This document shows, one piece after another, positions 3,559 to 52,058 of a stretch of DNA of 64,000 nt. Every line of letters starts with the position of its first letter. The first letter of the stretch is position 1. The notes under the pieces are model-generated. The model did not search any database and was not told where the DNA came from. It worked only from the letters and a program-made list of their open reading frames with translations. Origin of the DNA: Planctomycetota bacterium. Its GTDB lineage: Bacteria > Planctomycetota > UBA1135 > UBA2386. The position numbers and the translations under genes were made by a program. Location of the stretch: positions 6,536 to 70,535 of the forward strand of contig JAEUHS010000016.1 of the NCBI GenBank assembly GCA_016794035.1, written 5' to 3'.

Positions 3559-4422
3559 ATGTGGCTATGGGTCGGCATCGGCTGGGGGGCGCTGGCGTTG
3601 GGGTTGGCGTGGATCCACCACCGCCTCGGCCGCGCGCAGGGCGGCTATCCGCCCGAGGTCGCGGCGTTCCTGCTGCGGCTCGAGACCGAGCTGGCGGCCG
3701 CGCATCCGGACGTGCAGTTCCTCGGCATGCTGCCGGATCGCTTCGCCTGCCTGCTGCGGGTCGACGGACAGGAGACGCCGGTCGGCCTGCACGAAGCCTG
3801 GCGCCACTCGCAGGCGTTCCCCGACGCGTTCTCGCGCATGGTCGCTCGGCTGCTCGCCGATGTCGGCGAGAGCGGACTCGATCGGGTGGGTGACGTCGAC
3901 TTCGCCGACGCGGCGCCGCTGCTGATGCCGCAGGTGCGCAGCCGGGCGTGGGTCGACGCACAGGGAGCCTTCGGCGATGCGGCGCTGGTCCAACGGCCGC
4001 TCAACCACGATCTGGTCACGGTCTACGTGATCGACGATCCGCACTGCATGGTGTTCGTCTGCCGGGAGCACCTGCGTCGCTGGCGCAAGAGCGAGGCCGA
4101 CCTGCACAACCTCGCCGTGGCGAACCTGGGCCGGCTCGGCGGCGATGTGATCGACGGACAGGCGGCGAGCCGGGAACCGATGGTGCTGCAGTCGGGCGAC
4201 GGCTTCGACGCGGCGCGCGTGCTGCTGCTCGAACAGGCCGAGGGGCTGCTCGTCGCGATTCCCGATCGCGACACCCTGTGGGTCGGTCCGGCCCAGGGGC
4301 AGAACCTCGAGCAGTTGATGGCGACGACCGAGGCGATCGCCCGGCAGTCCTCGCACCCGGTGTCGGCGAGCCTCTACCGGGTCACGGACGGTCAGCTCGC
4401 ACCGCTGTCAGAGTCGGTGTGA
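3559..4422 (+). CDS. hypothetical protein with N-terminal membrane anchor (possibly UPF0354/DUF1444-like; family is a guess)
   Basis: This is the real 3' part of ORF 2332..4422. ATG 3559 is preceded by GGAG at 3551-3554. A TM helix (MWLWVGIGWGALALGLAWIHH) is followed by a soluble domain of balanced composition. Confidence 0.6.
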   Translation: MWLWVGIGWGALALGLAWIHHRLGRAQGGYPPEVAAFLLRLETELAAAHPDVQFLGMLPDRFACLLRVDGQETPVGLHEAWRHSQAFPDAFSRMVARLLADVGESGLDRVGDVDFADAAPLLMPQVRSRAWVDAQGAFGDAALVQRPLNHDLVTVYVIDDPHCMVFVCREHLRRWRKSEADLHNLAVANLGRLGGDVIDGQAASREPMVLQSGDGFDAARVLLLEQAEGLLVAIPDRDTLWVGPAQGQNLEQLMATTEAIARQSSHPVSASLYRVTDGQLAPLSESV

Positions 4423-5137
4423 GCACGACCGCACCGGCGCGCGGCACTTCGAAGCGCTGGCGCCTGGTCGCATCGATCGGGTCGACCAGTTCGTAGGCGC
4501 CGGCGCCCAGCAGCACCGTGGTCGGTGCGCCTGGCAGGATCTCGATCCCGGTCGCGGCATGGAACATCGGCAGCCACTGGGCATCGTCGCAACGCGACAG
4601 CCGCAGCGGCCCCGCCCGGCCGGCGGCGTCCGGCAGCACGATCTGCACGCTGTCGACGACGACGGGCAGGTCCACCAGTGTCGGGGTTCCCGCGGCCGCA
4701 GGTCCGATCTCGACCGAGGTGCGGGCGAGATAGCTGTGGCGCGCCCACTCGGGCGCCGCCGCCAGCGCCACCTGCAGATCGCCGCGCACCCTCGTCGTCG
4801 ACTGCAGCGTCAGGCTGCCGTCGGCTCCCGGCTCGCCGCCGTCGAGCGGCAGCCAGGTGAACTCGGCGCCCGTGCGGGCATCGTAGATCGCGACGCCGGC
4901 CCCGCGCAGCGCCGCCGGGACCGCTGGGATGCGGATCGCGACCGTCGCGACGGAGGTGGCCCGCGAACCGGCGGCGGGCAGCGCGTTGCGCGCGAACTCC
5001 GGCGCGGCCGGCAGGCGCTGCGGCGGCGGCGGCTGCACGATCGGCGCGATCGGGCCGAGCGACCCGTCCGGACCGGCATCGCGCCGCAACGCCAGCAGAC
5101 CGGCCCAGCCAGCGACGCCGACGCACGCGGCGAGCAC
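4382..5137 (-). CDS. hypothetical membrane-anchored beta-rich protein
   Basis: Protein-like composition with GTG at 5137. The hydrophobic helix continues upstream to CTG 5173, with GGAG at 5178-5181. It is in the same frame as the upstream 979-aa gene, separated by a single TAA. Confidence 0.55.
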   Translation of the reverse strand: MLAACVGVAGWAGLLALRRDAGPDGSLGPIAPIVQPPPPQRLPAAPEFARNALPAAGSRATSVATVAIRIPAVPAALRGAGVAIYDARTGAEFTWLPLDGGEPGADGSLTLQSTTRVRGDLQVALAAAPEWARHSYLARTSVEIGPAAAGTPTLVDLPVVVDSVQIVLPDAAGRAGPLRLSRCDDAQWLPMFHAATGIEILPGAPTTVLLGAGAYELVDPIDATRRQRFEVPRAGAVVLTPTLTAVRADRP

Positions 5138-5200: not shown

Positions 5201-8140
5201 TTAGCGCGGTTGCGCCTGCCTTGGCGCAGGAACGTTCGCGGGCGTCGCGCCGGTTGCGTCCTTGCGTACCGGTCCCGCCAGGACCGTGATCGGCGTGGTC
5301 CCGCCGGCGCCGACGACGATCGGCTGGCTGGTGCGCTCGCGGCCGCGCACGTTGACCACCAGCAGGTAGCTGCCCGGCTGGATCGCGTCGAAACGGAACT
5401 CGCCGTTCTGCAGCCGTGCGTCGAACGATGGGTGCTCGCGCTGCCAGGCGGCAAGGTCCTCGGGCAGGGCGTCGAGGCCGGGCAGCAGCGATACACGGCC
5501 GACCAGTTCCTTGACGTCGCCACCGTCGTCGCGGCCGACACTGCCGGCGATGCCGACGGTCTGCAGCGTCAGCTGGCGCTCGGTCGTCGCGTTGGCGATC
5601 ACCTGCACGCTCTCCTCGTGCAGCAGGCCGCCGCGACGCCCGCTCTGGATCCGGAGCCGGTAGGTGCCCGCGGGTACGTCCTCGATGCGGAAGCGGCCCG
5701 ATGCGGCGACAGTCGCCTGCTGGGTGCGGTTGCCCCACATGCCACGGCCACCGGGGCCACCGGGGCCGCCACCGCGCGGGCCGTTGGCGTCGCCGTTGCC
5801 GGTGTCGGCGGTCGCGCCGCTGTCCTCGCGCGTCAATTCGACCTGCAGGCCGGCGCCCGGCGCGCCGTTGTGCAGTACCGAGCCGGCGACCACGCCGACC
5901 TCGGCGCGTTGCACGGCGACGTCCCATCGCGTCTCCTCGCCGCTGCGCACCGCGACGTCGGCCGTCAGCGTGCCGGCGAACAGTTGCGGCCCCAGGGTGC
6001 GCATCAGTTCCTGCGGCGAGCCGATCCAGCTGCGCACCACGTAGTCGCCGGCCTCCAGGCCATCGATGCGGTAGGAGCCGTCGGCCTGGATGGTACCGGT
6101 GCGGAACGGGCCGCCGCCGCCCTGGCCGCGACCGCGGAACATGCCGGGCCCGCCGTCGCCCATGTTCGTCGGCACGGCGGCGATGCGCGCTTCGGCGTGT
6201 TCGCCTTCGGCGAGTCCGCGCACGTGGCCGACGATCGCGCCGAGCGTGCCGAGCCGCAGCATCACGCCGGAACGATCGTTCGCCAGCTCGAACGGCTCGA
6301 TGCTGGCGTCGGCGTAGCCGTCGGCATCGGCCTGCAGGCGGTAGCTGCCGCGCGGCACGTGTTTGAGCACGAACTCGCCGTCGACGTTGGTGGTCACCTC
6401 GATGTTCAGCTGTGCCCCGGCGAACTGCCGCGCGAAGGTGCGGCCGATCGCCTGGAGGTCGGGCGTGCCGCCGTCGGCGGTCGCGTTGCGGCCGGGGCGG
6501 ACCGGGGCCGGCGTGCGCAGCGAGACGTGCGCGTTGGCGATCGGGATGTCGCGCTCGTCGCGCACGATGCCGGCGACGTAGATGCCGCGATCGAGCACGA
6601 TGCGCAGCTCCGGCGCGGCGTTGCCGAGGCGGAGTTCCACCTCCTCGGAGCGGTAGCGCGCGTGCTCGGCCGACTGCACGTGTAGTTCGTAGACGCCTTC
6701 CTGCAGGCCCGGCACCTCGAAGCGGCCCGCGGGGTGTGCTTCGGCCGGGCCGAGGTCGCGCGCACCGCCGCCGCCCTGCCGGCCGCCGCCGCCACCCTGG
6801 CGACCGCCCCCGTCCTGGCGACCGCGCCGTGGGTCGTCGGCGCCGCCGCGGAACTGCTCGATCTGCGCCCGGATCGCCTCACGATCCGTGTCGCTGAGGT
6901 CGCCGCTCCGCATGCGCGCGAACAGTTCGGCGGGGTCCGTCGCTGCCATGCCCGGCACGGGCAGGCCGCGCAGGCGCACGGCGCGCACGGCGAACGCAGA
7001 CACCGGGGCACCGTCTGCGTCGAGCACGGTCCCGGTGATCCGCAGGCCGTCCAGCAGCGTCACCAACAGCGGCTGGCCAAGCCTGGGGTCGACCTGCTCG
7101 ACCTGGTACGGCAGGTAGCCGTCGGCGCGCACGTCGAGCCGCAGCGGCACGCCGGGCAGGTGCTCGAGGAAGAACCGGCCCTGCTCGTCGGTCGTCGCCC
7201 GGTGGTCGCGGCCGCCGGGACCCCGGCCGCCGTCGCGCGCGCCGCGCAGCGTCACGATCGCCTTGGCCACCGGCCGGTTGTCCATGCGGGTCACGATGCC
7301 GGTCACCTCGAAGCCCGGCCCGAGGCGGATGTCGTCGAGTTCGAGGGTCTGCTCGTTCTCGACCGCGAACACCGACGAGCGACCCTCGGTGTGCATCTTC
7401 GCCTCGGCGGCGACCGACCAGTCGCCGGCACTGACGTTCGGGCGGCGGAAGAAGCCGTTGTTGTCGGTCGTCGTGTCGGCCAGCAACTGCTCGCGGTCGC
7501 GCAGGAACCGCATGCGGTTGCCGTTCTCCGGCTGGAGCTTGACGGTTGCGCCGGGGATGCCGTTGCCCTCGAGGTCCGTGACGCGTCCGACCAGTTCGCC
7601 GCCGCGCTCGATCACCAGGTCGCCGAGGTCCACTTCCCCCTCGACGTCGCCGACGTCCTTCTCGAACAGGCCCGGTGCGTGGCCGGCGTGCAGCACCTGC
7701 AAGGAGACCCGCAGCGAGCGGAACGCCTGCCCCTGGAACGCGAAGCGGCCCTGCGGATCGGTCTGCACCGGATCGGGCACGCGCCGCTGCCGGCCGACCT
7801 GGCCACCCCGCGGGCCGCCGCGGCCGAAGTCGAGCCAGACGCTGGCATCGGCCTGGCCGGCGCCGAAGCGATCGACGACCCGGCCGCGCAGCACCACGGC
7901 GACGCGCGATTCGTCGCCGCGCACGATGTCACCGGCGGCGGCTTCCAGTTCGATGCGTTCGACGCCGGCGTCGCCGCCGGGGATCGACTCGGGGGCGGGC
8001 CGTTCCACCTCGACCTCGTCGCGTTCGGACCAACGCATCGGCGGCGTCTGCTCGTCGGCGAAGAACTGCGGCACCATGAGTCCACCGGTGGCGAGCAGGA
8101 TCAGGGCTCCGACCAGCAGAACGAGGCTATGTTTCGGCAT
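5201..8140 (-). CDS. large signal-anchored protein with ~8 tandem carboxypeptidase-regulatory-like (CarboxypepD_reg-type) beta-sandwich domains and Gly/Arg-rich loops
   Basis: N-terminal anchor LVLLVGALILLATGGLMV. Eight repeats follow the pattern G.V.D..G.P...A.V.L ... TD..G.F......G.Y.L.V..G (e.g. LVGRVTDLEGNGIPGATVKL...TTTDNNGFF, VTTNVDGEFVLKHVPRGSYRLQADADGY). Confidence 0.78.
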   Translation of the reverse strand: MPKHSLVLLVGALILLATGGLMVPQFFADEQTPPMRWSERDEVEVERPAPESIPGGDAGVERIELEAAAGDIVRGDESRVAVVLRGRVVDRFGAGQADASVWLDFGRGGPRGGQVGRQRRVPDPVQTDPQGRFAFQGQAFRSLRVSLQVLHAGHAPGLFEKDVGDVEGEVDLGDLVIERGGELVGRVTDLEGNGIPGATVKLQPENGNRMRFLRDREQLLADTTTDNNGFFRRPNVSAGDWSVAAEAKMHTEGRSSVFAVENEQTLELDDIRLGPGFEVTGIVTRMDNRPVAKAIVTLRGARDGGRGPGGRDHRATTDEQGRFFLEHLPGVPLRLDVRADGYLPYQVEQVDPRLGQPLLVTLLDGLRITGTVLDADGAPVSAFAVRAVRLRGLPVPGMAATDPAELFARMRSGDLSDTDREAIRAQIEQFRGGADDPRRGRQDGGGRQGGGGGRQGGGGARDLGPAEAHPAGRFEVPGLQEGVYELHVQSAEHARYRSEEVELRLGNAAPELRIVLDRGIYVAGIVRDERDIPIANAHVSLRTPAPVRPGRNATADGGTPDLQAIGRTFARQFAGAQLNIEVTTNVDGEFVLKHVPRGSYRLQADADGYADASIEPFELANDRSGVMLRLGTLGAIVGHVRGLAEGEHAEARIAAVPTNMGDGGPGMFRGRGQGGGGPFRTGTIQADGSYRIDGLEAGDYVVRSWIGSPQELMRTLGPQLFAGTLTADVAVRSGEETRWDVAVQRAEVGVVAGSVLHNGAPGAGLQVELTREDSGATADTGNGDANGPRGGGPGGPGGRGMWGNRTQQATVAASGRFRIEDVPAGTYRLRIQSGRRGGLLHEESVQVIANATTERQLTLQTVGIAGSVGRDDGGDVKELVGRVSLLPGLDALPEDLAAWQREHPSFDARLQNGEFRFDAIQPGSYLLVVNVRGRERTSQPIVVGAGGTTPITVLAGPVRKDATGATPANVPAPRQAQPR

Positions 8141-8291: not shown

Positions 8292-9596
8292 CTATGGGCC
8301 GAACACCAGCACCTGCGCGGAACTCGACCCGAGGATACCGCTGCTCGACAGCAGCGCCACCTGGGCCGTCGCGGGCACGGGCACCACGAAGCCGGGGTTC
8401 CAGAACGTCACCGACAGCGTGCCGTCGGCGGCGAACGGCGCCGGCTGCAGCAGCGGCGTGTTCGCGAGCACGAGGCGCCAGTGCAGCGGCTGCTCGAACC
8501 CGGCCACCGCGAAGGTACCGTTGCCCGGTGTCGCATCGAGCGCGATGGCCAGCAGGCCCAGCCCGTTGGCCGGGCCGTCGACGACCTGCAGCGTGACGTT
8601 GCCGCTCGGGATCGGCGCCGGCCCGACCGGCGTCAGCTGCGCGCGCCGCGGCGTCACGAAGCGCAGGGTGCTGGTCGCGACGAAATCGGTCTCGAACACC
8701 ACGAGCGTGCCGCCGACCGGCTGGAACGGCTCGAACACGGGCGCGCTGCCACTGGCGAGGAACTGTACCGCCGCGGCGCCCGCTGCGGCGCCGTACGAGA
8801 GCAGCGGCGCCGACCGCCACGGCGCGGGTCCGTCGACGTCGTTCAGTTCGCCGAGCGTGTTCTGGAACCAGTCGGTGAACAGCAGGTCGCCGTCGTCGTC
8901 GAGACAGATGTCGGCTGCGGCGTCGAGTCCCGCGAACACGAGGTCCGCGTCCGCGAGGCCCAGCACGGTGCCCTGTTGCCGCGCCGCGTCGACGACCGGG
9001 CGGCGGAAGCGCAGCACCGAGGTCTGCCCCGGCGGAGTCGGAAACGCCAGGCTGGCGGTCGCGTAGTAGACGTCGCCGTTGTCCGCGACCGCGACCGGTC
9101 CCGACGCGCCCGGCAGCGATGCCAGCTGCTGCACGGCGCCGGTCTGCAGGTCCAGCACCACGAGGTCGTTGTCGGGTGTGCCGAAGCCGCCGGTCTTGGC
9201 CGACACCAGCACATGCTGCGGCCCAAGCCGGGCGGCGTCGTAGTTGTAGACGATGTTCGCCAACGGCTGCGCCGGCGGCGGTCCCTGCAGCGGCACGAGC
9301 CACAGCCGGTTGGTGGTGTTCTCCGCGAACAACAGGTTGCCGGCGCCGACGTCCAGCGTGAACGAGCCGAACACGACCGTCGGCAGGTGCAGCAGGGACA
9401 GCGGTGGCTGGCCGGGTGTCGCGTGCCAGAGGTCGGTGCCGTCGAAGTAGACGAGGTCGCCGGCGGGCAGCGCCAGCGGGCTCGCCGCGGCGGCCGGCAG
9501 CGGCGTCTGTCGACTGTCGAGGCCCTCGGGAACCCGTTGGGCAGCGAGCGCGGGCCAGGTCAGGGCAGCGAGAAGCAGGTGGTTCAGCTCGTTCAT
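8292..9596 (-). CDS. secreted NHL/SMP-30-like beta-propeller protein with C-terminal beta-sandwich module (riboswitch-controlled paralog B)
   Basis: This is the real 3' part of ORF 8292..12188. ATG 9596 opens a signal peptide (MNELNHLLLAALTWPALAAQ). Propeller-strand motifs GPVAVADNGDVYYAT and DICLDDDGDLLFTDW. It lies 5 bp downstream of paralog A. Confidence 0.72.
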   Translation of the reverse strand: MNELNHLLLAALTWPALAAQRVPEGLDSRQTPLPAAAASPLALPAGDLVYFDGTDLWHATPGQPPLSLLHLPTVVFGSFTLDVGAGNLLFAENTTNRLWLVPLQGPPPAQPLANIVYNYDAARLGPQHVLVSAKTGGFGTPDNDLVVLDLQTGAVQQLASLPGASGPVAVADNGDVYYATASLAFPTPPGQTSVLRFRRPVVDAARQQGTVLGLADADLVFAGLDAAADICLDDDGDLLFTDWFQNTLGELNDVDGPAPWRSAPLLSYGAAAGAAAVQFLASGSAPVFEPFQPVGGTLVVFETDFVATSTLRFVTPRRAQLTPVGPAPIPSGNVTLQVVDGPANGLGLLAIALDATPGNGTFAVAGFEQPLHWRLVLANTPLLQPAPFAADGTLSVTFWNPGFVVPVPATAQVALLSSSGILGSSSAQVLVFGP

Positions 9597-9601
9597 GGGG
9601 A

Positions 9602-10975
9602 TCAGGGCAACAGGTCGAGGCGGATCACGGCGGCGCTGCCGACGTCGCCGGCGCCGAGGGCGTCCATCGCGACGACCTGCAGGTCGACGCGGCCCGGCGC
9701 GGAACCGGGATTCCACAGGGCGAAGTTCGCCGCACCGGCGGCGTCGAGCGCCGTGTCGGCGACCAGGAACGTGGTCGCCAGCGGCAGCGCCAGCCACAGC
9801 GGCGTGCCGTTCACGGTCGCGACGAGGGTCTCCGGGCCGCTGCCGGGCAGGCTCGCGAACGCGAACCCGAGGCCCAGCGGAGGCGCGCCGGTGACGTCGA
9901 CGGAGAACGGGCCGACGGGGACGCGGGTGCCGGTCGGCACGGTTGCGTGCGGGCGTGCCGACCGCAGTTGCCGCCACTCGTAGCGGGTGGCGAAGTCGCT
10001 GGTGCCGACGCCGAGCGCCGGGGCCGCGTCGGCGGGTTGGAAGCCGCGGAACGGCGCGCTGCCGTGCGGCTGGTAGTGCAGCGTCAGGGCGAATCGTCCC
10101 GGGCCGACGTCGAGGGTGGTGCCGACCGGCGACAGCCCGCCCGGCGCCGTGTGCACGACGACGCTGCTCGTCGGATCGGTGGCATGCAACCGCCCCTGGT
10201 CGTCGACGGCCAGATCGAACAGGCCGGTGTAGCCGGTGCCGATCGCGGTGACGTCGGCCATGGACAGGGTCGCGCCGGCGAGCGCCGCCGACACGCGGTT
10301 GGCGGGAATCTGCAGCAGGCGGATGGCGCCCGGGGGCGGCGGCACCGTCGGTCCCAGTTCGCCGACGACGAGATCGCCGTTCGCTCGTACGGCCAGCGGT
10401 GCCGACGGGCCGACGAGCGCCAGCACTTCCCGCGGGAGTCGACCCGGGCCGACCAGCCAGACTCCGCTGTGGGCGCCGGCCTGTGGCCACATGGGGTTGG
10501 CCGTCACCAGCAGGTCGGCGCCGAGCGCCGCCGCGTCGAAGGCGTTCGGTACGCCGGCGAACGTGCCGACGTGGCCGGCGACCGGATCGACCAGCAGCAC
10601 CTTGCCGCTGCGCAAGGCGCCGACCGCACACCGCCCGCCCGCGACGGGCACCAGGAAGGCGATGTCGTCGTTGCTGCCGAGGTCGAGCAACGGCCGCATC
10701 GTGGCCACCCGTTGCGCACCGGTCCGGAACAGCTGCTGCCGCACGGCCACGAGGTGCTCCTTCGCGTTCAGCACCAGGGCGCTGCGCACGAGCAGCGGTT
10801 GCGCCGTCTCGACGAACGATGTCGCGCAGCTCCAGCCGGGCGGCACGGTCGCCGCCTGCGCCGCCAGCGTCGCGCCGAAGCCGACGGCGGCCAGCGCGCG
10901 GCCGAGGCGCGCGAGCCGACGCGGTGCCACGGCGGGGGCGCCGGCACGCAGGTTCGGCGACCTGATGGCTGTCAT
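9602..10975 (-). CDS. secreted NHL/SMP-30-like beta-propeller protein with C-terminal beta-sandwich module (riboswitch-controlled paralog A)
   Basis: ORF 9602..11098 trimmed to ATG 10975, with SD GAGGTGG just upstream. Signal peptide MTAIRSPNLRAGAPAVAPRRLARLGRALAAVGFGATLAAQA. Motifs LFDLAVDDQGRLHATD and ANGDLVVGELG. The C-terminus parallels paralog B (FALWNPG vs TFWNPG). Confidence 0.72.
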   Translation of the reverse strand: MTAIRSPNLRAGAPAVAPRRLARLGRALAAVGFGATLAAQAATVPPGWSCATSFVETAQPLLVRSALVLNAKEHLVAVRQQLFRTGAQRVATMRPLLDLGSNDDIAFLVPVAGGRCAVGALRSGKVLLVDPVAGHVGTFAGVPNAFDAAALGADLLVTANPMWPQAGAHSGVWLVGPGRLPREVLALVGPSAPLAVRANGDLVVGELGPTVPPPPGAIRLLQIPANRVSAALAGATLSMADVTAIGTGYTGLFDLAVDDQGRLHATDPTSSVVVHTAPGGLSPVGTTLDVGPGRFALTLHYQPHGSAPFRGFQPADAAPALGVGTSDFATRYEWRQLRSARPHATVPTGTRVPVGPFSVDVTGAPPLGLGFAFASLPGSGPETLVATVNGTPLWLALPLATTFLVADTALDAAGAANFALWNPGSAPGRVDLQVVAMDALGAGDVGSAAVIRLDLLP

Positions 10976-11034
10976 GATCCACCTCGGCGTCTTGCGCGCC
11001 GCGAATGGGAACCGGAAGCGACGGCCATGTGGCC

Positions 11035-11185
11035 GTTCCTCGCGGATGTTCTGGCTCCCGGATCGGCCTACTGACCCGCCTTCCCAGGTCGCCGACACGG
11101 CGATCCCAGTGGCACTTGGGCGTTCGTTCCCGGTGACAGCTGCGGGACAGCGCCGGAATCACACCGGCTTCCCCGCGAGGAACCG
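11035..11185 (-). promoter_or_regulatory. cobalamin (B12) riboswitch aptamer, 5' leader of the 10975 gene
   Basis: Minus-strand read: cGGTTCCTCGCGGGGAAGCCGGTGTGATTCCGGCGCTGTCCCGCAGCTGTCACCGGGAACGAACGCCCAAGTGCCACTGGGATCGCCGTGTCGGCGACCTGGGAAGGCGGGTCAGTAGGCCGATCCGGGAGCCAGAACATCCGCGAGGAACgg. It carries the conserved core GGGAA.CCGGTG.GA.TCCGG..C.G.CCCGC..CTGT, plus GCCACTG, GGGAAGGC and a B12-box-like GAGCCAGAAC. A perfect 10-bp P1 helix (GTTCCTCGCG/CGCGAGGAAC) closes it. The aptamer ends 59 nt before the ATG. Not verified with a covariance model. Confidence 0.8.
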
Positions 11186-11186
11186 C

Positions 11187-11214
11187 AGGGTATCCGGACC
11201 GGCTCCATGCACAA
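11187..11214 (-). promoter_or_regulatory. candidate sigma-70-type promoter of the riboswitch transcript
   Basis: -35 TTGTGC (11214-11209), a 16-nt spacer, and -10 TACCCT (11192-11187). The predicted TSS falls at the 5' edge of P1. This is a pattern match only. Confidence 0.25.
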
Positions 11215-11321
11215 GGGAAAGTGCGCCGCCGGCCGGCGCGGGACTTGCCTGATGGCCGCCGCGGCACGAGAAACCACGGTTGCCGCCGACCCTCGTCCCT
11301 GCGGTCGTGTCCAACCAGCCC

Positions 11322-12092
11322 ATGTTGTCCCTCCTGGCCGAAGTGCGGCGTCGCGCCGGCGACGCCGGCCTGAACCTGCTCGGCCTGGTGGATGCGGAAC
11401 GATTCGACGCCGCCCAGACCCGGGAGCGCCGCGTGCGGTCGATCGCGCCCGACTGCGGCACGGTGCTCGTCGTCGGCAGCGGCGGCCGCGAGCTGTGGCA
11501 GCGGTTCGAACGGCGCAGCGGGGCATCGTGCCGCAGCGCGGCGAGGGTCGACCGCTACGCATCGGCAGCGGCGCGGCAGATCGAGACGCTGTTGCGTTCG
11601 TCGGCGATCCGCTGCCGCACGATCGCCGGCCCGTGTGACTCGCGGCTGCCGTTCACGCAGCTCGGCGAGGCGGCGGGCCTCGGCACGGTGTCGCCGGTGA
11701 CGGGGCTCCTCCTGCACCCGCAGTTCGGACCCTGGGTGCGGATCCGCGCGGTCGTGCTGGCCGACGGCAGGCCGTTCGGGCCGATCGCCGATGCGTCGAT
11801 CAGCGAGCGATTCCAGCCGTGCTGCGGCTGCAGCCGCCCGTGCGTCACGGCGTGTCCGGTCGGCGTGCACGACGGCCTCGGCGGCCAGGACTTCGGTCGC
11901 TGCGCGAGCCACCGGCACGCGGGCAACTGCGAAACGCACTGCAGCAGTCGCAGCGCCTGCCCCGTGGGCAGCAGCCACCGCGACGCCGACGGCGAACATG
12001 CGCACCGCCATGCGCATTCGTTGAGCGCCCTGCGTCGGCACTTCGGACTCGGCGTCTGGCGTTGGCTGCCGAATTCCTGGCGCCGGCCATGA
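11322..12092 (+). CDS. Fe-S protein resembling the catalytic core of epoxyqueuosine reductase QueG / reductive-dehalogenase superfamily (short form)
   Basis: ORF 11280..12092 trimmed to ATG 11322. Motif LGTVSPVTGLLLHPQFGPWVRIRAVVLADG is followed by Cys clusters PCCGCSRPCVTACP and CASHRHAGNCETHCSSRSACP. Confidence 0.6.
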   Translation: MLSLLAEVRRRAGDAGLNLLGLVDAERFDAAQTRERRVRSIAPDCGTVLVVGSGGRELWQRFERRSGASCRSAARVDRYASAAARQIETLLRSSAIRCRTIAGPCDSRLPFTQLGEAAGLGTVSPVTGLLLHPQFGPWVRIRAVVLADGRPFGPIADASISERFQPCCGCSRPCVTACPVGVHDGLGGQDFGRCASHRHAGNCETHCSSRSACPVGSSHRDADGEHAHRHAHSLSALRRHFGLGVWRWLPNSWRRP

Positions 12093-12096
12093 TCGC

Positions 12097-12885
12097 ATGA
12101 GGTCGCCGGCGCGCATCGTCAGCCTCGTGCCGAGTACGACCGAGAGCCTCTGTGCACTTGGTGCGGGCGCCGCGCTGGTCGGGTGCACGCGCTACTGCGA
12201 GGAACCGGCCGGCGAACTCGCGGCCGTGCGCCGTGTGGGCGGGACCAAGAACCCCCAGCGCGAGGCGATCCTGGCCCTGCACCCCGACCTCGTGCTGGCC
12301 AACGCCGAGGAGAACCGGGCCGAGGATCTCGAGTGGCTGCAGGCCCGGGTGCGCGTCGTCGTCCACACACCTCGTACCGTCGGCGAGGCCGCTGCGTGCC
12401 TGCGCGACCTCGCGGCCGAGTTGGCCGTGCCAGAGGCCGTGCAGCCGTTCCTGCTCCGCATCGAATCGCAGCTCGCCGCCGCGCAGGTCGCGTTGCTCGA
12501 AGCGCCGGCGATCGACGTCTTCTACCCCGTGTGGTGCAGGCCGTGGATCAGCATCAACGGCGACACGTTCGTCCACGACGTGCTGCGTGTGGTCGGTCTG
12601 CGCAACATCGCCGCCGACCTGCCGCGCCGCTATCCGGAAGTCGAACTGGAATGGGTGCGTTCGCGGCGTCCCGGTGCGGTGCTGTTGCCGAGCGAGCCAT
12701 GGGCGTTCACCGCGAGCGATCGCGATGTCTGCCGCGGCGAGCGCACGTTCGGTCCGGCTGCCGTCGAGTTGTGCGACGGCCGCGACTTCTGCTGGCACGG
12801 GGTGCGGCTGGCCGACGGACTCGGGCGAGCGCTGCGCCTCGCCGCGCGATTGCGTCGCGCGGCCGGCCGGCGCCATCGATCGTGA
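12097..12885 (+). CDS. BtuF/TroA-like (Peripla_BP_2) cobalamin/metal-chelate binding protein without signal peptide
   Basis: MRSPARIVSLVPSTTESLCALGAGAALVGCTRYC...VGGTKNPQREAILALHPDLVLA matches the typical BtuF-family N-lobe. No hydrophobic leader. Starts 4 bp after the previous gene. Confidence 0.7.
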   Translation: MRSPARIVSLVPSTTESLCALGAGAALVGCTRYCEEPAGELAAVRRVGGTKNPQREAILALHPDLVLANAEENRAEDLEWLQARVRVVVHTPRTVGEAAACLRDLAAELAVPEAVQPFLLRIESQLAAAQVALLEAPAIDVFYPVWCRPWISINGDTFVHDVLRVVGLRNIAADLPRRYPEVELEWVRSRRPGAVLLPSEPWAFTASDRDVCRGERTFGPAAVELCDGRDFCWHGVRLADGLGRALRLAARLRRAAGRRHRS

Positions 12886-13427: not shown

Positions 13428-14783
13428 TCAGTTCGAGGTCGAGGTCGATGACCGGGTGGCAGCCCGCCGTTCGCGGCGGCGGCGCCGACGCGCGTCCATC
13501 TCCCGCTGGTGCTCCTGCGTCTCGCGCGAGGAACGGCGGGTACCCCACCAGAACAGCAGCATCAGCCCGGTCAGCACGCCGGCGAGCGCGAGTCCGACCT
13601 GCCGCATCGCCGGATCGGTCGCGAGTTCGTAGCGGTCGAGGTCGGCGGCGACGAACAGCGGCACGAAGTGGCGCTTGCCGGTCTTCGCCTCGTAGGCGAA
13701 GCGGCGGTAGTAGAGGCCGCGCACCTCGAGCTGGGCCTGCATCGGCAGATCGCCGACGCGCTTGGGCACCCAGATCGGCACCAGGGCGCCGCCCCATTCC
13801 CGCACCTGCACCAGGGCCACGGTCCAGAACTTGATCCCCGCCGGGTTGGCGGGCGCCGCGACCGTGGTGCGGCGGATCAGCGTGCCGATGATGCGCAGCG
13901 GCGTGCCGCGCAGCAGTTCGCCGGCCTTGAAGGTCTCGAACAGGTCGGCGGCGTTGAGGATGCCGATGCGGCGCCACTCGGCGAAGGTGCGGTCGCCGGC
14001 GGTGTCGCGAGCGAACGCAGCGAGGTGCCAGAGCGGTTCGCCCTGATCCTCCTCGATGGTGCGCCACATCGGGTCCTGGGGCCAGAAGCTGGTGTCCTCG
14101 ACCTTCGCCATCACCGCCGGATCGAGCTGCCGCACCGGCCCCCAGTCCTCGTAGTCGCGCTGGATCGCGCGGCCGACCAGCATCGGCACCGCACGCAGGT
14201 CGAGCGGGTAGGTGGTGTCGCGCAGCTTCAGCAGGTAGCCCTCGATGCGCACCCAGGAGCCCTTCTGGATCGTGGGCTCCGGCGGCATGGAGAACGCGGC
14301 GATCGCGTGCTCGCCGTCGGTGAGCCGGATCGTCGCCTCGTAGATCGAGTAGCCGTCGATCGGGTGCCCGGGCCGCGGTCCGGAGAGGTCGACGAGTTCG
14401 CCTTCGTACCAGATCCAGCGCCCGCGCCACTTGGCCAGGTCGGCGCGCACGGTGGCCAACGGGACCGGTTCCGCCGGCATGCCGAGGGCCGCCGCGACCG
14501 TCGGACCGACGTCGATCGCGAGCCGCAGCAGGTGCCGCAGCGGTTCCGTCTCGAGCTGCAGCCGTTGGTCGCGCGAGGTGTCGGCCACCTGCGCGAGCAG
14601 GCCGCGGTCCAGGTCCGGCGCGACGACGGTGGCTTCGACCTGGGGCGCGTCGGGTGTCGGCGCGGCGGGGGTGCTCCAGGTACCGACCAGATAGGCGATT
14701 GCCGCCAGCATGACGCCGCAGACCAGCAGTCGGACCAGCGGCGGGATCGGCGGGAGCAGGCGCGGCGGGGTCGGAGCTTGCAT
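13428..14783 (-). CDS. hypothetical membrane protein (N- and C-terminal TM helices bracketing a ~370-aa domain, Arg-rich tail)
   Basis: Protein-like composition rich in W/Y/F/K/E. TM helices LVRLLVCGVMLAAIAYLVG and VGLALAGVLTGLMLLFWWG. I recognise no family. Confidence 0.7.
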   Translation of the reverse strand: MQAPTPPRLLPPIPPLVRLLVCGVMLAAIAYLVGTWSTPAAPTPDAPQVEATVVAPDLDRGLLAQVADTSRDQRLQLETEPLRHLLRLAIDVGPTVAAALGMPAEPVPLATVRADLAKWRGRWIWYEGELVDLSGPRPGHPIDGYSIYEATIRLTDGEHAIAAFSMPPEPTIQKGSWVRIEGYLLKLRDTTYPLDLRAVPMLVGRAIQRDYEDWGPVRQLDPAVMAKVEDTSFWPQDPMWRTIEEDQGEPLWHLAAFARDTAGDRTFAEWRRIGILNAADLFETFKAGELLRGTPLRIIGTLIRRTTVAAPANPAGIKFWTVALVQVREWGGALVPIWVPKRVGDLPMQAQLEVRGLYYRRFAYEAKTGKRHFVPLFVAADLDRYELATDPAMRQVGLALAGVLTGLMLLFWWGTRRSSRETQEHQREMDARRRRRRERRAATRSSTSTSN

Positions 14784-22403: not shown

Positions 22404-25331
22404 TCAGCGCGGCGACGGGCGCACGCCGTACGGCGCCAGCTCGCGCGCGAGCGCGTCGGTCCAGCGTTCGAACTGGACGGCGCCGGCGGCGTCGAGGTGT
22501 GCGTCGAGCGCGCGGCACGCCGCATCCCAGCAGGCGATCGCATACGACTGCGCCGGCACCTGGGCGCCGTCGAGCGCGGCCACATCGCAGAACGACAGCA
22601 GATTCCGGCGCCACCGGTCCTGCCAGGCAGCGAGATCGAAGCTGCCGGCTGCCGCCGGTTCCAGGGCCGTCGTGCGCAGCAGGTCGGCAGCCGGTCGCAG
22701 CGTCGTCGGCAGTTCGGCGGCGCGCCCGACCAGCGCCGCCGCGAAGCCGCCGCGCGCGGCGGCGGCGGCGTTCGGGTTCCACCAGGACTGGACGAGCAAC
22801 GGCAGGCCGATCGCGAGCAGCATGGCGCCGGTCGCGACGGTCCAGCGCCGACGCCGGCGGCGGACCGCGGCAGCGCGTTCCTGCAGCACTCGCTCGCCGG
22901 CCTGCTGGCACTGCGCCGCGAGCTTGCGCCAGTGCTCCAGCAATCGCAGCAGGCGTCCGGGGGCTTCGGTCTCGTGGCCGGACGCGGCCACCGCCGCCGC
23001 GACCTCGTCGATCGTCGCGCGGATGATCCGTGCCCGGGCTGGCAGCTCCGAGGTGCCGTCGAGCTGCTGCTCGGCCATCGCGGCGTGTTCGAGCGTGATC
23101 TGCGTCTCGACGTCGCGCAGGTCCTTGGTGTAGAGCATCGCGCGGTCGGCGGCGACGTTCATCGTCAGCAGGTGCAGGCAGTCGCGCCGCTCGGTCAGCG
23201 CCTGCAGCCGATCGGCGAACGACGACGACGGGTCGTCCTGCAGCGAGCCGTAGCGCGTCGTCAGCTCGACGTTGCGGCGCACGGCGGCGTCGACCTCGAG
23301 CCGGCGGCGCCTGGCGTCCGCGAGGCGGGCCTGCAGGCGCGCGGCTTCGGCACGGTCGTGTTCGTCGAGCGGGTTGAGTTCGGCGACCGCACGTTCCATG
23401 TCGAACAGCCCGGTCGTCCAGTGGCCGCGCGCCAGCGCGCTCTCGGCGCCCTCCGCGAGCCGGTCGCGCGTCGCCCGCGCCTGGTCGAGGCGCAGCCGCA
23501 GCGATTCGATCGCGTCCTGCAGCTGACTGCGCGGCTGCTCGGGCCGGTCGACGAACGCCTCGAGGATGCGGAACGTGTCCAGCCGCGCGAGCGCGGCCTG
23601 CAGCGGGCGCACCGGCACCGGCACGGAGCGCAGCAGCGCCTCCGCCTCGTCGCGCGCCTGCCAGGCCCGATCGGTCAGGTCGAACAGCGCCTGGCTCAGC
23701 GCCTCGTACGCCGGCGTCACCGGCGGCAGGTGGGGGAACTCCTCGCTGAGGTTGACCAGCGTGATCTGCAGGCTGCGCAGGCCGACGACGCCGGTCGAGG
23801 ACTCGTGGCGCGAACGGCCCTGCACGGCGTCGACGGCGGCGGCCACGAAGCTGGTCAGCGGCGCCAGCGCCACCGCATCCCAGAGGGTCGCCACGCGCTC
23901 GACGTTCGGTTGCGCCCGGGCGACGCGTTCGAGGTAGAAGCCGAGCCGATGCAGCTGGTCGCGCTGCCGCGTCGCCGTCGGCGACACGCCGCCGTGGCGC
24001 GCCGCCATCGCCTCGATCGCCTGTTCGGTGCCAGCGAGGTCGAGCCGGCTCTCGGCGCCGAGGATGGCCTGCGTCTGCTGCGCCAGTTCCTCGCGCGCCG
24101 CGCCGAGCTGGCGTTCGAGCTGCTGCAGGTAGCCGATCGGATCGCGGTGCAGGCGCGTCGCGGCGGCGGGGGGCACGCTCGGGATCGCGCAGCCGCCGGG
24201 CAGCTGCAGGCAGTCGTGTGCGAGCCGTCGGGCGTCGTCGAGCCATTCGGCCGCGGCGGCGAACTCCTCCGACCGCCGCAGGGTGTCGATGTGGGCCGCG
24301 GCGTCGGCGAGCAGACGCCCCGCGGTCTGGCAGAGCGTGCGGCGCCACTGCAGCGTCTCGCGGTGGCGCGGGAAGCGCTGCAGCACGCGCGCGGCGGTCG
24401 CCAGTTCGCGGCGCAGGGCCGCCGGCTCGGTCGGCAGCGCGCGCGGGATCGTCAGCAGCTGCGGCAGCCGACGCAGCCGGCCCCGGCTGTGTCGCACCCA
24501 TGCCGCCAGCGCCGGGCGCATCGCCGCGAACGTCGGCGGTTGCAGGACGCCGCGCGCGGCCGCGTCGAGCACCGCCTCTTCGGCGTCGCCGTCGAGGCGC
24601 GTCGCCAGTTCGTGCAGCGCCGCCGCGGCCGCGCCCGCGGTCGGTCGCCGCTGCGGGTCCGGATCGAGCAGGCGTTCGAGCAGCGCGACCACGGCCGCGG
24701 GTTGCGGCAGGGCCGTGCTGCCGCCGCCGCTCAGCAGCCAGCGCCACGTCGCGCCGAGACCGAACACGTCGCCCGCCGCGCTCGGCGGTTCGTCGGCATG
24801 GAACTCGCTCGGCATGGCGCGCGGCGGCGAGCCGTCGGCGCCGTTGGTCGGCGAAGGAATCGGGGCCGCATGCTCGAAGTCGAGCAGCAGCGTGGTCGCC
24901 TGCGTCGCCAGCAGGTTCTTCGGCCGGACATCGCCGTGGCAGATGCCCGCCGGCGCCGTGGCGGTGCGGATCGCATGCAGCCGCGCGAGGGTCTCGGCCA
25001 CCGGCGCCAGCAGGCGGCACGCCAGCGCGGCCGGCAGCGCACCCTGCTCGCCGACCAGGCGGTCGAGGTCGGTGCCCTCGACGAACGTCGTCGTCAGGCA
25101 CGGCCGCTGCGTGGTCGGGTCGAGCGCGCAGTCGAGGTAGGCCACGACGCCGGGACCGGCGCCGCACCGTCCCATCGCCAGCTCCCGTTCGGCGTCGGCG
25201 AGCGAGCCCGACACGACCAACTTGCGGACCACGCGTTCGCCGCGGACCGGGTCCGTCGTGACGAACACGGTCCGGTGCGGCGAAGCGTGCAGCAGCCGGT
25301 CGGCGGCCGCAGAAGCGGCGGAGCGGGTCAT
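22404..25331 (-). CDS. atypical protein-kinase-like domain protein with ~650-aa helical region and a C-proximal TM helix
   Basis: This is the real 3' part of ORF 22404..27359, starting at ATG 25331. Kinase elements VVRKL (beta3 Lys), AERELAMG (alphaC Glu), CHGDVRPKNLL (catalytic loop) and LLDFEHA (DFE in place of DFG). No GxGxxG loop. TM helix WTVATGAMLLAIGLPLLVQSWW. Confidence 0.7.
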   Translation of the reverse strand: MTRSAASAAADRLLHASPHRTVFVTTDPVRGERVVRKLVVSGSLADAERELAMGRCGAGPGVVAYLDCALDPTTQRPCLTTTFVEGTDLDRLVGEQGALPAALACRLLAPVAETLARLHAIRTATAPAGICHGDVRPKNLLATQATTLLLDFEHAAPIPSPTNGADGSPPRAMPSEFHADEPPSAAGDVFGLGATWRWLLSGGGSTALPQPAAVVALLERLLDPDPQRRPTAGAAAAALHELATRLDGDAEEAVLDAAARGVLQPPTFAAMRPALAAWVRHSRGRLRRLPQLLTIPRALPTEPAALRRELATAARVLQRFPRHRETLQWRRTLCQTAGRLLADAAAHIDTLRRSEEFAAAAEWLDDARRLAHDCLQLPGGCAIPSVPPAAATRLHRDPIGYLQQLERQLGAAREELAQQTQAILGAESRLDLAGTEQAIEAMAARHGGVSPTATRQRDQLHRLGFYLERVARAQPNVERVATLWDAVALAPLTSFVAAAVDAVQGRSRHESSTGVVGLRSLQITLVNLSEEFPHLPPVTPAYEALSQALFDLTDRAWQARDEAEALLRSVPVPVRPLQAALARLDTFRILEAFVDRPEQPRSQLQDAIESLRLRLDQARATRDRLAEGAESALARGHWTTGLFDMERAVAELNPLDEHDRAEAARLQARLADARRRRLEVDAAVRRNVELTTRYGSLQDDPSSSFADRLQALTERRDCLHLLTMNVAADRAMLYTKDLRDVETQITLEHAAMAEQQLDGTSELPARARIIRATIDEVAAAVAASGHETEAPGRLLRLLEHWRKLAAQCQQAGERVLQERAAAVRRRRRRWTVATGAMLLAIGLPLLVQSWWNPNAAAAARGGFAAALVGRAAELPTTLRPAADLLRTTALEPAAAGSFDLAAWQDRWRRNLLSFCDVAALDGAQVPAQSYAIACWDAACRALDAHLDAAGAVQFERWTDALARELAPYGVRPSPR

Positions 25332-25526
25332 GGAGGCAAGGGCGCCGGCGCGCACCGCGGGTGCGGTGACGAGCCGTCGACAGCAGGGGTGGATCCGCGT
25401 CGGCAAGCCGAGGTGGTGGCGGACCACGCCAAGTGTAGCAGCGCGTCGGGCCCCGGGCAGGCCGTTCGTCGACGGGAATCCGACACCCCACTGCCCAGGC
25501 TGGCCGGCATCGGCGACAATCCGACG

Positions 25527-27377
<1,851 letters not shown>

Positions 27378-27386
27378 CCGGCGCGA

Positions 27387-45801: not shown

Positions 45802-48800
45802 TCACGTCGGGCGCGGGTCGACCTGCAGCAGGTCGTTGACGGCCGCCAGCAGGGCGCCGATCGCGAACGGCTTCTCCAGCAGGCGCAGCGGGCCGTCGGC
45901 GCCGGTGCCGAGGTCGCCGGCCTCGCCGAAGAAGCCCGACACGAACAGCACCGGCAGCCCCGGCCGCTCCGCGGTCAACGCCGCCGCCAGTTCGCGGCCG
46001 CCCAGGCCCGGCATCACGACGTCGGTGATCAGCAGGTCGATCGTGCCGCGATGCCGGCGCGCGACGGCGAGCGCGCTCTGGCCATCGCTGGCGAGCAGCA
46101 CGGTGTGGCCGGCGCGCTGCAGCGCGCGCTGCACGAGGCCGCGCACCGGCGCCTCGTCCTCGACCAGCAGGATCGTCGCGGCCGCCGTCGGCGTCGGTGC
46201 CGCCGGCGCGACGGGCTCCGCCCCGGCGGCGCCCGTCGTCGACGGCAGCCGGATCCAGGCGGTCGTGCCCACGCCCGGTTCGCTCTCGAGCCACGCGTCG
46301 CCGCCGCTCTGCCGGGCGATGCCGTACACGGTCGACAGGCCGAGCCCGGTGCCCTTGCCCGGTCCCTTGGTGGTGAAGAACGGGTCGAACGCGTGCGAGC
46401 GCACGGTCTCGTCCATGCCGGTGCCGGTGTCCCGCACCCACAGCAGCGCGTGCGGCGCCGAGTTCTCGGTGCCGGGGACGTTGGCGACGCCGATCGTCAG
46501 CGTGCCGCCGGCCGGCATCGCGTCGCGCGCATTGACGACCAGGTTCAGCAGCACCTGTTCCATCTGGCTGCGATCGACGCGCACCGGCACCGGCCCGCCG
46601 GGCCGTTCCTGGCGCAGCTCGATGCTGGCGCCGATCAGGCGCTGCAGCAGCTCGGCCAGTTCGTCGACGATGGCGGCGAGGTCCATGACGTGGGGCGCCA
46701 GCAGCTGCTGGCGGCTGAAGGCCAGCAGCTGGCGCGTCAGCCCAGCGGCCCGCGACGCTGCATCGAGGATGCCGCGGGTGTCGGCGCGTCGCGCGTCGTC
46801 GGACGGCAGCGACTCGTCCAGCGCTTCCGCGTAGCCGACCACCGCGGTCAGCAGGTTGTTGAAGTCGTGCGCGACGCCGCCGGCGAGCTTGCCGACGGCC
46901 TCCATCTTCTGCGCCTGCCGCAGCTGCTCCTCGAGCGACTTGCGCGCGGTGATGTCGGCGACCACGCCGACGTAGGCACCGCCGCCGTCGAGGCCGCGCA
47001 CCAGCGTGCTCGACACCAGCGCCCAGAACCGCGACCCGTCCCGGCGGTGCAGCTGCATCTCGTCGGCCTCGTGCTGTCCCCGGTCGGTGCACAGCGAGGC
47101 GAGGTCGGCCAGATGTGCGGCCGGCAGGTCTGCGTCCGTCGCGACGAGGCGCAGCATCTCCTCCGGCGAGTCGTAGCCGAACAGCTCGGCGAAGCGTTGA
47201 TTGGCATAGGTCAGGCCGTGACCGTGCACGCAGCGGAACAGGCCCTCGGCGACGTGGCGCTGGATCGACACCAGCAGCGACTCCCGTTGTTCGCGTTCGA
47301 TGACGACGCCCGTGAGCACCGCGGCCCGTTCGACCAGTTCGATCTGCGCGGCGGTCGGCTGCCGGGGTTCGCGGTGGTAGATCGCGAAGGTGCCGACGGG
47401 TCGGCCGGCCGGCGAACGGATCGGCACCGACCAGCACGCGCGCAGACCATGGCTGGCGGCCGCTTCCCGCGCGATGTCCCAGGCCGGGTCGCGGGCGATG
47501 TCCGCGGTGATCACCGTGCGATTGTCGTGGGCCGCCGTGCCGCAGGTCCCGACCGCGGGACCGATCTCGATGCCCTCGATCGCCGCGCTGTAGCCCGACG
47601 GCAGCGAGGGAGCGCAGGCGAGGTGCAGCCGGCGGCCCTGCAGCAGCAGGATCGAGCCCATGCCGCGGCCCATCTGGCCCTCGATGCCCCGCACGATCTC
47701 GGTGAACACGTCCTGCACCGGCCGCGCCGTGGCGACGAGTTCGAGGATGCGGGCCTGCCAGGCCAGCAGCCGCTCGATCGCGGCGCGCTCGCTGACGTCG
47801 CGCACGATGCCCAGCACCTCGTCGTCGGCGAGACGGATGAAACGCGCCTCGCGCACCCGGTGGTGATGCGGCGGACTCAGCGGATACTCGATCGCACCGG
47901 AGCGACCATGGGTGCAGGCGTCGTCGATGGCGCGCAGCATGCGGTCGGCGACGTCGGCCGGCACCAGCGCCTCGAGCGGCTGGTCGATCAGGCGCTCGCG
48001 CGGCGTCGGCAGCGGCACGCCTTCGGGCACCAGCGCGTCGAGCACGGTGCCGTCGCGGCGCATGCGGTAGACGACGTCCGGCAGCACGTTCAACAACGCC
48101 GCGCGCAGTCCCTCGCTGCGGAACCAGCCCTGTGCGTTCGCCTGCCGCTCGGCGAACAGGCTGCCGAACACCAGCGGCACCGCCAGCAGCATCAGTTCGA
48201 AGATCTGGATCGCGGTGTGGCGCTCGCGCAGCGACGCCAGCTGGAACGGGCCGATGGCGTGGCTCGACGCGACGGTGACCGTGACGGCCGCGAGGAACGA
48301 CGCGGTCGTGGTGCCGCGCAGGCCGAAGCGCCACGCGACCGCCAGCAGCAGCGGCACCAGCCCATAGAGCATCACGATCGAGGTCGCGTTGGCGGACAGC
48401 TGCGTCAGCACGCCCCACGCCATGCCCGATATCACCGCCATCAGCAGCGCACCCTCGAGCAGCGGTCGCGGCCGCAGGCGCGGGCGCCCGCCGGCGGACC
48501 AGGTCAGCACCAGTGGCACGACCGCCAGCACCCCGAGCGCGTTCATGCGCCACCAGCCGTAGTAGCCCGACGCGCGCGGGCCGACGCCCACCACCGTGCA
48601 GAAGATCGTCGACGTCACGACGCTGGCGAGCGGCGCGACCGCCGCCGTGAGCAGCAGCGCCAGCACGTCGCGCAGCCGGGCGAACGCCGCCTGGCAGCCA
48701 CACGCGCGCAGCACCAGCACGCCGACCACCGCCTCGGCGGCGCTGCCGAGCCCGGCGGTCACCGCCGCCGCGGGCAGATAGTCGTTCCACAGCCGCTGCG

Positions 48801-48990
48801 CGACGACCGCGGCGAAGACGACGGCCGCCGCCGGCAGGCCCAACAGCCAGGTGCCCGCGACCGCGACGCCGCTCGGCAGCCAGACGATGGCGTGGGTGAC
48901 GGCCGGTCCGTCGAGGGCGTGCAGCAGTCCTGCCGCGACGAACGCGAGCAGGAACGCCACGTAGCGCAGGGTTCGTGTCGCCGCGGGCAT
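45802..48990 (-). CDS. hybrid sensor histidine kinase/response regulator (MASE1-like membrane domain, PAS, GAF, PAS, HisKA, HATPase_c, REC)
   Basis: About 8 N-terminal TM helices ([17 protein letters not shown]). H-box [11 protein letters not shown]. ATPase motifs [16 protein letters not shown] and GTGLGLS. Receiver motifs [17 protein letters not shown] and LEKPF. Confidence 0.9.
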
Positions 48991-49028
48991 CGCCGCCCGA
49001 GGGTAGCGAGCGCCGCCGGGCGACGCAT

Positions 49029-52028: not shown

Positions 52029-52058
52029 GGGTCTTCGAGTCTGCGGGGTGATACGAAA

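Follow-up and report, generated by a model that had tools for sequence, protein, structure and literature searches.

The stretch of DNA analyzed here, 64,000 nucleotides from contig JAEUHS010000016.1 of a Planctomycetota bacterium (the window, with a G+C content of 72.9%), carries a cobalamin riboswitch at the head of a four-gene operon, A-B-C-D, whose first two genes encode exported proteins with a predicted β-propeller fold. Our findings indicate that the family to which these two proteins belong is accompanied by a cobalamin riboswitch at every related locus examined. We propose, with a probability of roughly 55%, that the operon encodes a capture module repressed by vitamin B12, in which B, alone or together with its paralog A, would capture corrinoids periplasmically or extracellularly. 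The role of C and D would be that of anchored partners, and import would depend on genes located elsewhere. Such a module would most likely be analogous, not homologous, to the BtuG, BtuH, and BtuJ scavengers.

The riboswitch was identified with Rfam cmscan as a match to RF00174 at window positions 11033-11221 on the minus strand, with 82.3 bits (gathering score, 31.5; E = 9.6e-19), and it is the sole Rfam match across the whole 64 kb. It lies in the 346 bp that separate the divergent starts at 10975 and 11322, where the initial annotation had already placed a minus-strand cobalamin riboswitch; the conserved core strings and the B12 box can be read directly on that strand. The elements of the leader and the genes behind it are the following:

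11035-11183, minus strand: cobalamin riboswitch aptamer (RF00174), closed by helix P1; from the Rfam match and reading of the sequence
10976-11034, minus strand: expression platform with a hairpin, a pyrimidine-rich spacer, GGCGCGCAAGACGCC, and a Shine-Dalgarno (SD) sequence; from the sequence
9602-10975, minus strand: gene A, open reading frame (ORF) of 457 amino acids (aa); predicted exported NHL/SMP-30-like propeller with a C-terminal β-sandwich
8292-9596, minus strand: gene B, ORF of 434 aa; predicted exported acidic propeller with a C-terminal β-sandwich
5201-8140, minus strand: gene C, 979 aa; Pfam PF13620 (CarboxypepD_reg), E = 1.7e-65, in five stretches
4382-5137, minus strand: gene D, ORF of 251 aa; N-terminal hydrophobic segment

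The architecture of the leader agrees with the earlier description of a perfect P1 helix, an SD sequence, and the spacing between the aptamer and the start codon. The two arms of P1, GTTCCTCGCG (11183-11174) and CGCGAGGAAC (11044-11035), form a perfect 10-bp helix located 59 nt from the ATG of gene A at 10975. The platform opens with the hairpin GGCC-ACAT-GGCC at 11034-11023 and continues through the pyrimidine-rich spacer to the invariant GGCGCGCAAGACGCC at 11000-10986, which directly abuts the SD sequence GAGGTGG (10985-10979), placed 4 nt before the gene A ATG; across related leaders, an invariant GGCGC...GACGCC element likewise adjoins the SD sequence. This layout is kept in more than 50 loci and the leader is orthologous throughout, with RF00174 scores of 35-103 bits. 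The aptamer alignment from 22 loci contains 71 invariant columns, and RNAalifold recovers two platform helices; in the first of these, 3 of the 4 base pairs show compensatory changes.

A terminator-like T-run was sought between the aptamer and the ATG and none was found, and for this reason translational control of the operon is the likely mode. The riboswitch would respond to an adenosylcobalamin (AdoCbl)-type ligand and would act as an OFF switch by occluding the SD sequence. A terminator-like hairpin upstream of the aptamer (11239-11223) was dismissed as being within chance expectation, and the single-sequence minimum-free-energy fold of the leader, which was not distinctive (z = -1.4), was not used. 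We also looked for a kissing loop (L5-L13) that would join the aptamer to the hairpin following P1; such pairing seemed plausible in two sequences (GUGU with ACAU in the window, GCGAA with UUCGC in locus L006) and was inconsistent across loci.

Key evidence for a dedicated relationship between the riboswitch and these proteins comes from their homologs, whose recurrence behind RF00174 the initial annotation had proposed as a test. The outcome was positive at all three levels of relatedness. Among loci encoding homologs of A (38-58% identity), RF00174 is found directly upstream and on the same strand in 8 of 8, with scores of 69-89 bits. A scan with the B profile, using one genome per GTDB species, provided 52 B-family loci, and a covariance model (R1) built from 22 of their aptamers detected the riboswitch ahead of the A/B genes at 50 of these loci, including L016, where the aptamer is cut by the contig end; the riboswitches of the two loci missed by R1 (L054 and L058) were recovered by the Rfam model, bringing the count to 52 of 52. 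In a more distant tier, with 28-34% identity to B, RF00174 again precedes the gene in 5 of 5 loci (46-103 bits; the aptamer of L061 is cut by the contig end). The neighborhoods of this tier are unrelated to that of the window, and in L063 and L015 the B homolog stands alone behind the switch.

Taken together, a cobalamin riboswitch lies upstream and on the same strand in 65 of the 65 loci examined, among them relatives of only 28-40% identity whose surroundings differ entirely. Because the window contains one riboswitch in 64 kb, situated exactly in the coding-strand 5' leader, and the arrangement recurs at all of these loci, chance placement can be excluded. Furthermore, the linkage between the riboswitch and B has been kept through complete turnover of the neighborhood and down to approximately 30% protein identity, which argues for selection acting on the linkage itself.

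The family is broad and appears to be centered on B. The A family comprises 27 members at 90% clustering, all of them from Planctomycetota metagenome-assembled genomes (MAGs) or metagenomes, and the B family has at least 168 homologs. An exhaustive search of 1.84 billion representatives with the B profile returned 245 clusters (50% identity) with E <= 1e-30, a number that rises to 523 when the limit is set at E <= 1e-10. Among the 150 best-scoring members listed, almost every one is a full-length protein of 425-455 aa. Gene B itself is identical to JNM25_02530 of a MAG named "Planctomycetes bacterium", and the named sources of A and B homologs are Planctomycetota MAGs or metagenomes, with the exception of a short contig binned as Luminiphilus.

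To define the conserved unit, the window's own proteins were mapped with tblastn over the 52 species loci. The order riboswitch-B occurs in 37 of them and the order riboswitch-A-B in the remaining 15; C lies downstream of B in 39, often followed by D. In L001, an additional locus that comes from the A-family set and lies outside the 52, the interval from the riboswitch to C holds A without B. Based on these counts, B is the conserved core, A an added, lineage-restricted paralog, and C and D frequent partners. The initial annotation had presented the tandem A-B pair as the unit and as the two regulated genes. The pair is indeed present in the window and both genes lie behind the switch, but the unit conserved among species is B, and the operon continues with C and D.

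Neither protein could be assigned to a described family. No Pfam or NCBIfam model matched A or B in our scans and, in line with what had been stated earlier, they are therefore not btuB, btuF, btuCD, cob, metE, or nrd genes. The two are separated by a 5-nt spacer (TCCCC) and are paralogous: BLASTP (E = 3e-13) aligns about 254 aa, within the C-terminal two thirds, at 30% identity. The earlier description of two paralogous signal-peptide proteins, each with a propeller and a C-terminal β module, holds in all its parts. The signal peptides are of the Sec type and end in A-Q in both families (27 A and 63 B members; that of gene B ends AQ|Q), and a lipobox cysteine at the cleavage site was found in none of these proteins; A and B are therefore soluble exported proteins and not lipoproteins. 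Mature B would accordingly comprise residues 21-434, and mature A would begin at about residue 41; Y178, T180, R196, D233, D242, W243, and F291 are invariant in B. A possible Tat (twin-arginine translocation) motif in A, PRRLARL, was dismissed since it is not conserved among homologs. The B family is uniformly very acidic, with a median isoelectric point of 4.13 and a median net charge of -19 across the 63 members, and the A family is mildly acidic.

A separate observation concerns the C-termini of the A family, nearly all of which end in L-L-P with a near-invariant final proline (window positions 9605-9616 in gene A). This ending could represent a sorting or interaction signal; the C-terminal ends of the B family are different.

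Confident structural models were obtained with AlphaFold2 using family alignments, with a mean predicted local distance difference test score (pLDDT) of 88.9 and a predicted TM score (pTM) of 0.84 for A, and 94.1 and 0.90 for B. Both models display a β-propeller followed by an all-β C-terminal domain, a sandwich of about 110-130 aa. Against the PDB, the best Foldseek matches are six-bladed propellers of the NHL, DFPase, Drp35, SMP-30/gluconolactonase, and strictosidine synthase types (E of about 1e-6 to 1e-8, probability 1.0, target-normalized TM scores of 0.58-0.66), and luciferin-regenerating enzyme is also among them; the top match of B is 1l0q, an archaeal S-layer protein with a YVTN propeller and a PKD domain. 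When the family profiles were compared with all PDB sequences, the match obtained was to one blade of Pizza6, a designed protein derived from NHL (E = 3e-9 for B and 6e-6 for A); the B profile also meets DFPase at non-significant E-values.

At the level of the predicted fold, A and B appear to belong with the NHL/SMP-30-like six-bladed propellers, the number of blades being taken from the best matches. Unlike the NHL and SMP-30 families, A, B, and nine further family members have no Pfam NHL (PF01436) or SGL (PF08450) match, and a C-terminal domain is added to the propeller; to our knowledge, a gene context dedicated to B12 riboswitches is likewise not a feature of those families. A domain-fusion ("Rosetta stone") search among the longer family members returned only one arrangement, a tandem propeller with a dockerin-like tail. 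This protein, P0246, was among the results of the exhaustive profile search; it is 674 aa long and consists of two propeller modules in tandem, and its C-terminal DxNxDGxxD repeats take the place of the β-sandwich, a sequence feature that suggests extracellular or surface docking.

Genes C and D complete the operon. C starts 151 nt after B on the same strand, and its product combines an N-terminal hydrophobic anchor or signal with five CarboxypepD_reg (transthyretin-like) domains. D starts 63 nt after C, is the final gene of the conserved cassette, and has no Pfam or NCBIfam match. No terminator-like site was found inside the A-D stretch, and the product of each of the four genes has an N-terminal segment for export or anchoring. 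Cobalamin riboswitches are known to control B12 biosynthesis, the transport of B12 or cobalt, and B12-independent isozymes. Because all four products are exported or anchored, the cytoplasmic target classes, namely biosynthesis and B12-independent isozymes, are excluded.

A further secreted family, which we designate H, is also tied to cobalamin riboswitches in related genomes. Its members are about 330-345 aa long, share 40-66% identity with one another, and have no Pfam match. The window has no H gene; elsewhere, H is served by a second riboswitch of its own in two loci (L060, 7361-7507, minus strand; L048, 8179-8346, minus strand), sits between the riboswitch and B in a third (L062), and follows A-B in a fourth (L003). 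Members were located as follows, with additional ones in L051, L055, and L056:

L060, 6309-7337, minus strand: H family member
L048, 7125-8060, minus strand: H family member
L062, 1137-2162, plus strand: H family member
L003, 10741-11733, plus strand: H family member

These observations can be combined into a sequence of events. The AdoCbl-type riboswitch in the A-B-C-D leader would sense intracellular cobalamin. With plentiful B12, the operon would be off, most likely through occlusion of the SD sequence; when B12 becomes scarce, it would be expressed and its products exported. B and A, secreted through Sec as soluble proteins, would then bind corrinoids either periplasmically or extracellularly. 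C, whose five transthyretin-like domains form a chain anchored in the membrane, and D, small and likewise anchored, would provide a scaffold or hand the ligand over. Transport across the inner membrane would depend on a transporter encoded elsewhere. In Planctomycetes, large molecules reportedly enter an enlarged periplasm by an unknown route that does not involve porins (PMC5394234), and in view of this uptake of macromolecules a soluble periplasmic binder would make sense.

The closest precedent is BtuG, a B12-capturing surface lipoprotein of Bacteroides and an exported β-propeller with an acidic ligand-binding face that is encoded in a riboswitch-repressed operon and acts as an accessory capture protein, not as a transporter (PMC10404256; PMC6143338). 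Like BtuG, A and B are exported propellers behind a cobalamin riboswitch, and B is very acidic. BtuG, however, has seven blades and a lipid anchor and sits as the lid of a stable complex on BtuB, a TonB-dependent transporter, whereas A and B best match six-bladed propellers, have no lipobox, and carry an extra C-terminal β-sandwich. The initial annotation had cited BtuG as a precedent while refraining from any claim of homology, and this restraint proved appropriate: profile searches give zero sequence signal, the likeness is that of propellers in general, and we reject homology to BtuG.

BtuH and BtuJ (DUF4465, PF14717), which are B12-binding proteins of Bacteroidetes with a β-sandwich or jellyroll fold, are likewise riboswitch-linked, all-β accessory corrinoid binders, and some members of the Planctomycetota have DUF4465 as well (bioRxiv 10.1101/2025.07.01.662609; PMC8941943). 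They are lipoproteins, whereas A and B are not, and membership in DUF4465 was rejected because A, B, and nine further members have no PF14717 match at E <= 0.01. The likeness to the Escherichia coli Btu system (BtuB-BtuF-BtuCD) lies in its control by a cobalamin riboswitch and in a BtuF-fold protein, F, encoded next to the operon. Unlike in that system, BtuB, BtuC, and BtuD are not present in the window, and F is divergent from the riboswitch, lacks a signal peptide, and scores below the family cut-off. No TonB-dependent receptor (BtuB) was found among Pfam-labeled neighbors in the examined loci or among the scanned window ORFs; this negative covers the loci with labeled neighbor genes, as the tblastn map was queried with window proteins only. 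In our literature searches, the A/B family and its operon were nowhere described, and nothing was found in the searchable literature on outer-envelope B12 capture in Planctomycetota.

Several points weigh against a capture function. In the Foldseek rankings of A and B, BtuG2 (8ptf, 8bai, 8bn0) and BT1954 appear only at positions 33-49, with TM scores of 0.32-0.48, and the A and B profiles matched no known B12 binder among all PDB chain sequences, BtuG2 and BT1954 included. Neither the cassette nor the rest of the 64-kb window contains a TonB-dependent receptor, an ATP-binding cassette (ABC) permease, or an energy-coupling factor (ECF) transporter. The 65 loci are not fully independent, since many share ancestry and synteny, and corrinoid binding by A and B is a property that we infer. 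Finally, enzymes predominate among the proteins that A and B resemble most in fold (SMP-30, lactonase, DFPase, and strictosidine synthase).

This last point leads to the alternative that survives best, according to which A and B would be periplasmic or extracellular enzymes, induced at low B12, that process corrinoids or their carriers before uptake, for instance by releasing B12 from foreign carrier proteins or by hydrolyzing or remodeling cobamide precursors. The best structural matches are indeed six-bladed enzyme propellers (DFPase, Drp35, SMP-30, strictosidine synthase, and luciferin-regenerating enzyme), and the riboswitch linkage suits any step of B12 acquisition equally. However, no Pfam SGL, NHL, or lactonase match was obtained, the only sequence signal is one NHL-type blade shared with Pizza propellers, and NHL propellers are mostly binding modules. 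We regard an enzymatic role as unlikely and retain B12-repressed capture as the preferred reading.

The genes divergent from the operon, which are not behind the riboswitch, bear on this question as well:

11322-12092, plus strand: gene E, 256 aa; cysteine-rich, putative remote relative of QueG/RdhA/CblC
12097-12885, plus strand: gene F, 262 aa; Pfam Peripla_BP_2, E = 9e-17, BtuF/TroA-like
13428-14783, minus strand: gene G, 451 aa; no Pfam match, hydrophobic N- and C-terminal segments

An alignment of 26 homologs of E reveals two conserved cysteine clusters, PCCxCxxPCVxACP and CxxHRxxGxCxxxCxxRxACPxG. The profile built from these homologs matches QueG (5d08, E = 3.2e-5), the catabolic reductive dehalogenase NpRdhA (4ras, 2.5e-3), and CblC/MMACHC (about 0.15) in the PDB. 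The NCBIfam models for QueG and for reductive dehalogenases match 13 and 3 of the 26 members, respectively, all far below their cut-offs (TIGR00276 reaches E = 1.6e-4 at best and does not attain its cut-off of 200 bits), and Pfam MMACHC matches 3 of the 26. The profile matches and the two cysteine clusters make E a putative distant relative within the QueG/RdhA/CblC superfamily, whose proteins bind cobalamin, and it may be a bacterial cobalamin-processing enzyme.

The product of F matches NCBIfam TroA_like (NF038402) with 171.5 bits; the BtuF equivalog model gives 63.6 bits, and its cut-off of 234 is not reached. The BtuF/TroA-fold domain begins at residue 5-7 in F and in a similar gene from L065. 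Since it starts at residue 7 in the window protein, F lacks a signal peptide and presumably stays in the cytoplasm. The Peripla_BP_2 gene of L065 (3477-4424), also BtuF-like, follows the B homolog within a riboswitch-led operon. Of the 52 species loci, 43 have E no more than 10 kb away from B and about 30 have F, and many related loci keep G in synteny with E-F (51-77% identity). The membership of E and F in B12-binding superfamilies, as predicted from sequence, together with their recurrence as neighbors, supports a B12 theme for this divergent pair, which the initial annotation had not recognized. Within the proposed scheme, cytoplasmic E, as a QueG/RdhA/CblC-like iron-sulfur (Fe-S) protein, and F, as a signal-less BtuF-fold protein, would receive or process the imported cofactor; the roles given to C, D, E, and F are ones that we infer. 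ORF scans detected no further B12 genes in the rest of the window. The gene map based on G+C at third codon positions (GC3) is unreliable at 73% GC and served only to choose ORFs for Pfam.

The same neighbors help to assess a second alternative, in which the cassette would serve to take up cobalt, or some other cation, for the cell's own production of B12. Cobalt transporters are classic targets of B12 riboswitches and are commonly repressed in B12 producers, B is extremely acidic (the median net charge of -19 given above), and C weakly matches DUF4198 (E = 4e-7) and the nickel/cobalt ECF subunit NikL (8.5e-4), both below their cut-offs. These weak matches, however, fall on the transthyretin-like fold that is generic to CarboxypepD_reg domains, and no CbiMNQO, CbtA, HoxN, cob, or cbi gene is present in the cassette or the window. 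The superfamilies of E and F bind the whole cofactor and not the free ion, and in L065 the B homolog is co-transcribed with a BtuF-fold protein. We consider cation acquisition very unlikely.

We give equally little credence to an envelope or surface function (adhesion, architecture, or sensing) with B12 status as a mere expression signal: surface and S-layer proteins commonly combine propellers with immunoglobulin-like and CarboxypepD_reg domains, the S-layer protein 1l0q ranks first in the Foldseek results for B, C weakly matches an NCBIfam model of an anammox S-layer glycoprotein, and one family member has a dockerin-like C-terminus, but the linkage survives complete neighborhood turnover, B12-themed genes (E, F, and BtuF-like genes) recur alongside, and we know of no cobalamin riboswitches outside B12 metabolism, B12 transport, and B12-independent isozymes.

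Beyond a B12-repressed capture module, a more extensive interpretation is conceivable, although we hold it only tentatively and consider it rather doubtful as a whole. In this joint reading, B with or without A, as soluble acidic binders of the NHL propeller type, together with C, D, E, and F, would form a complete and hitherto unseen B12 capture-and-processing system of an uncultured Planctomycetota clade, independent of BtuB and TonB, marked out by its riboswitch, and made of proteins that lack known relatives. C and D would pass corrinoids across the enlarged periplasm, and in the cytoplasm E as a CblC/QueG-like Fe-S enzyme and F as a signal-less BtuF-fold chaperone would process and traffic the cofactor.

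Elsewhere in the window, we observed tandem Kelch-repeat propellers (49051-52136 and 45805-49047, both on the minus strand) beside a large MASE1-PAS-GAF hybrid histidine kinase. Two very large ORFs with Ser/Thr protein kinase domains lie at 53597-58108 and 22407-27386, also on the minus strand; one of these kinase ORFs (1504 aa) additionally contains TPR and FG-GAP repeats, and the frame of the second is uncertain at high GC.

Few microbes produce vitamin B12 but most depend on it, and the way in which cells capture it therefore shapes microbial communities. Outside the Btu system of E. coli and the BtuG, BtuH, and BtuJ proteins of Bacteroides, capture of B12 at the outer envelope is poorly known. 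The present analysis defines a compact protein family, with at least 245 clusters at 50% identity and members about 435 aa long, by its essentially obligate linkage to cobalamin riboswitches and thereby presents a candidate new class of corrinoid binders, possibly of high affinity. It also points to C, D, and H as candidate partners and to E and F as a possible bacterial CblC-like processing pair. If the proposed function is true, the family would represent a second, independent recruitment of a β-propeller for B12 capture, and it would open a way to study how nutrients are taken up in a phylum whose cell envelope is unusual.

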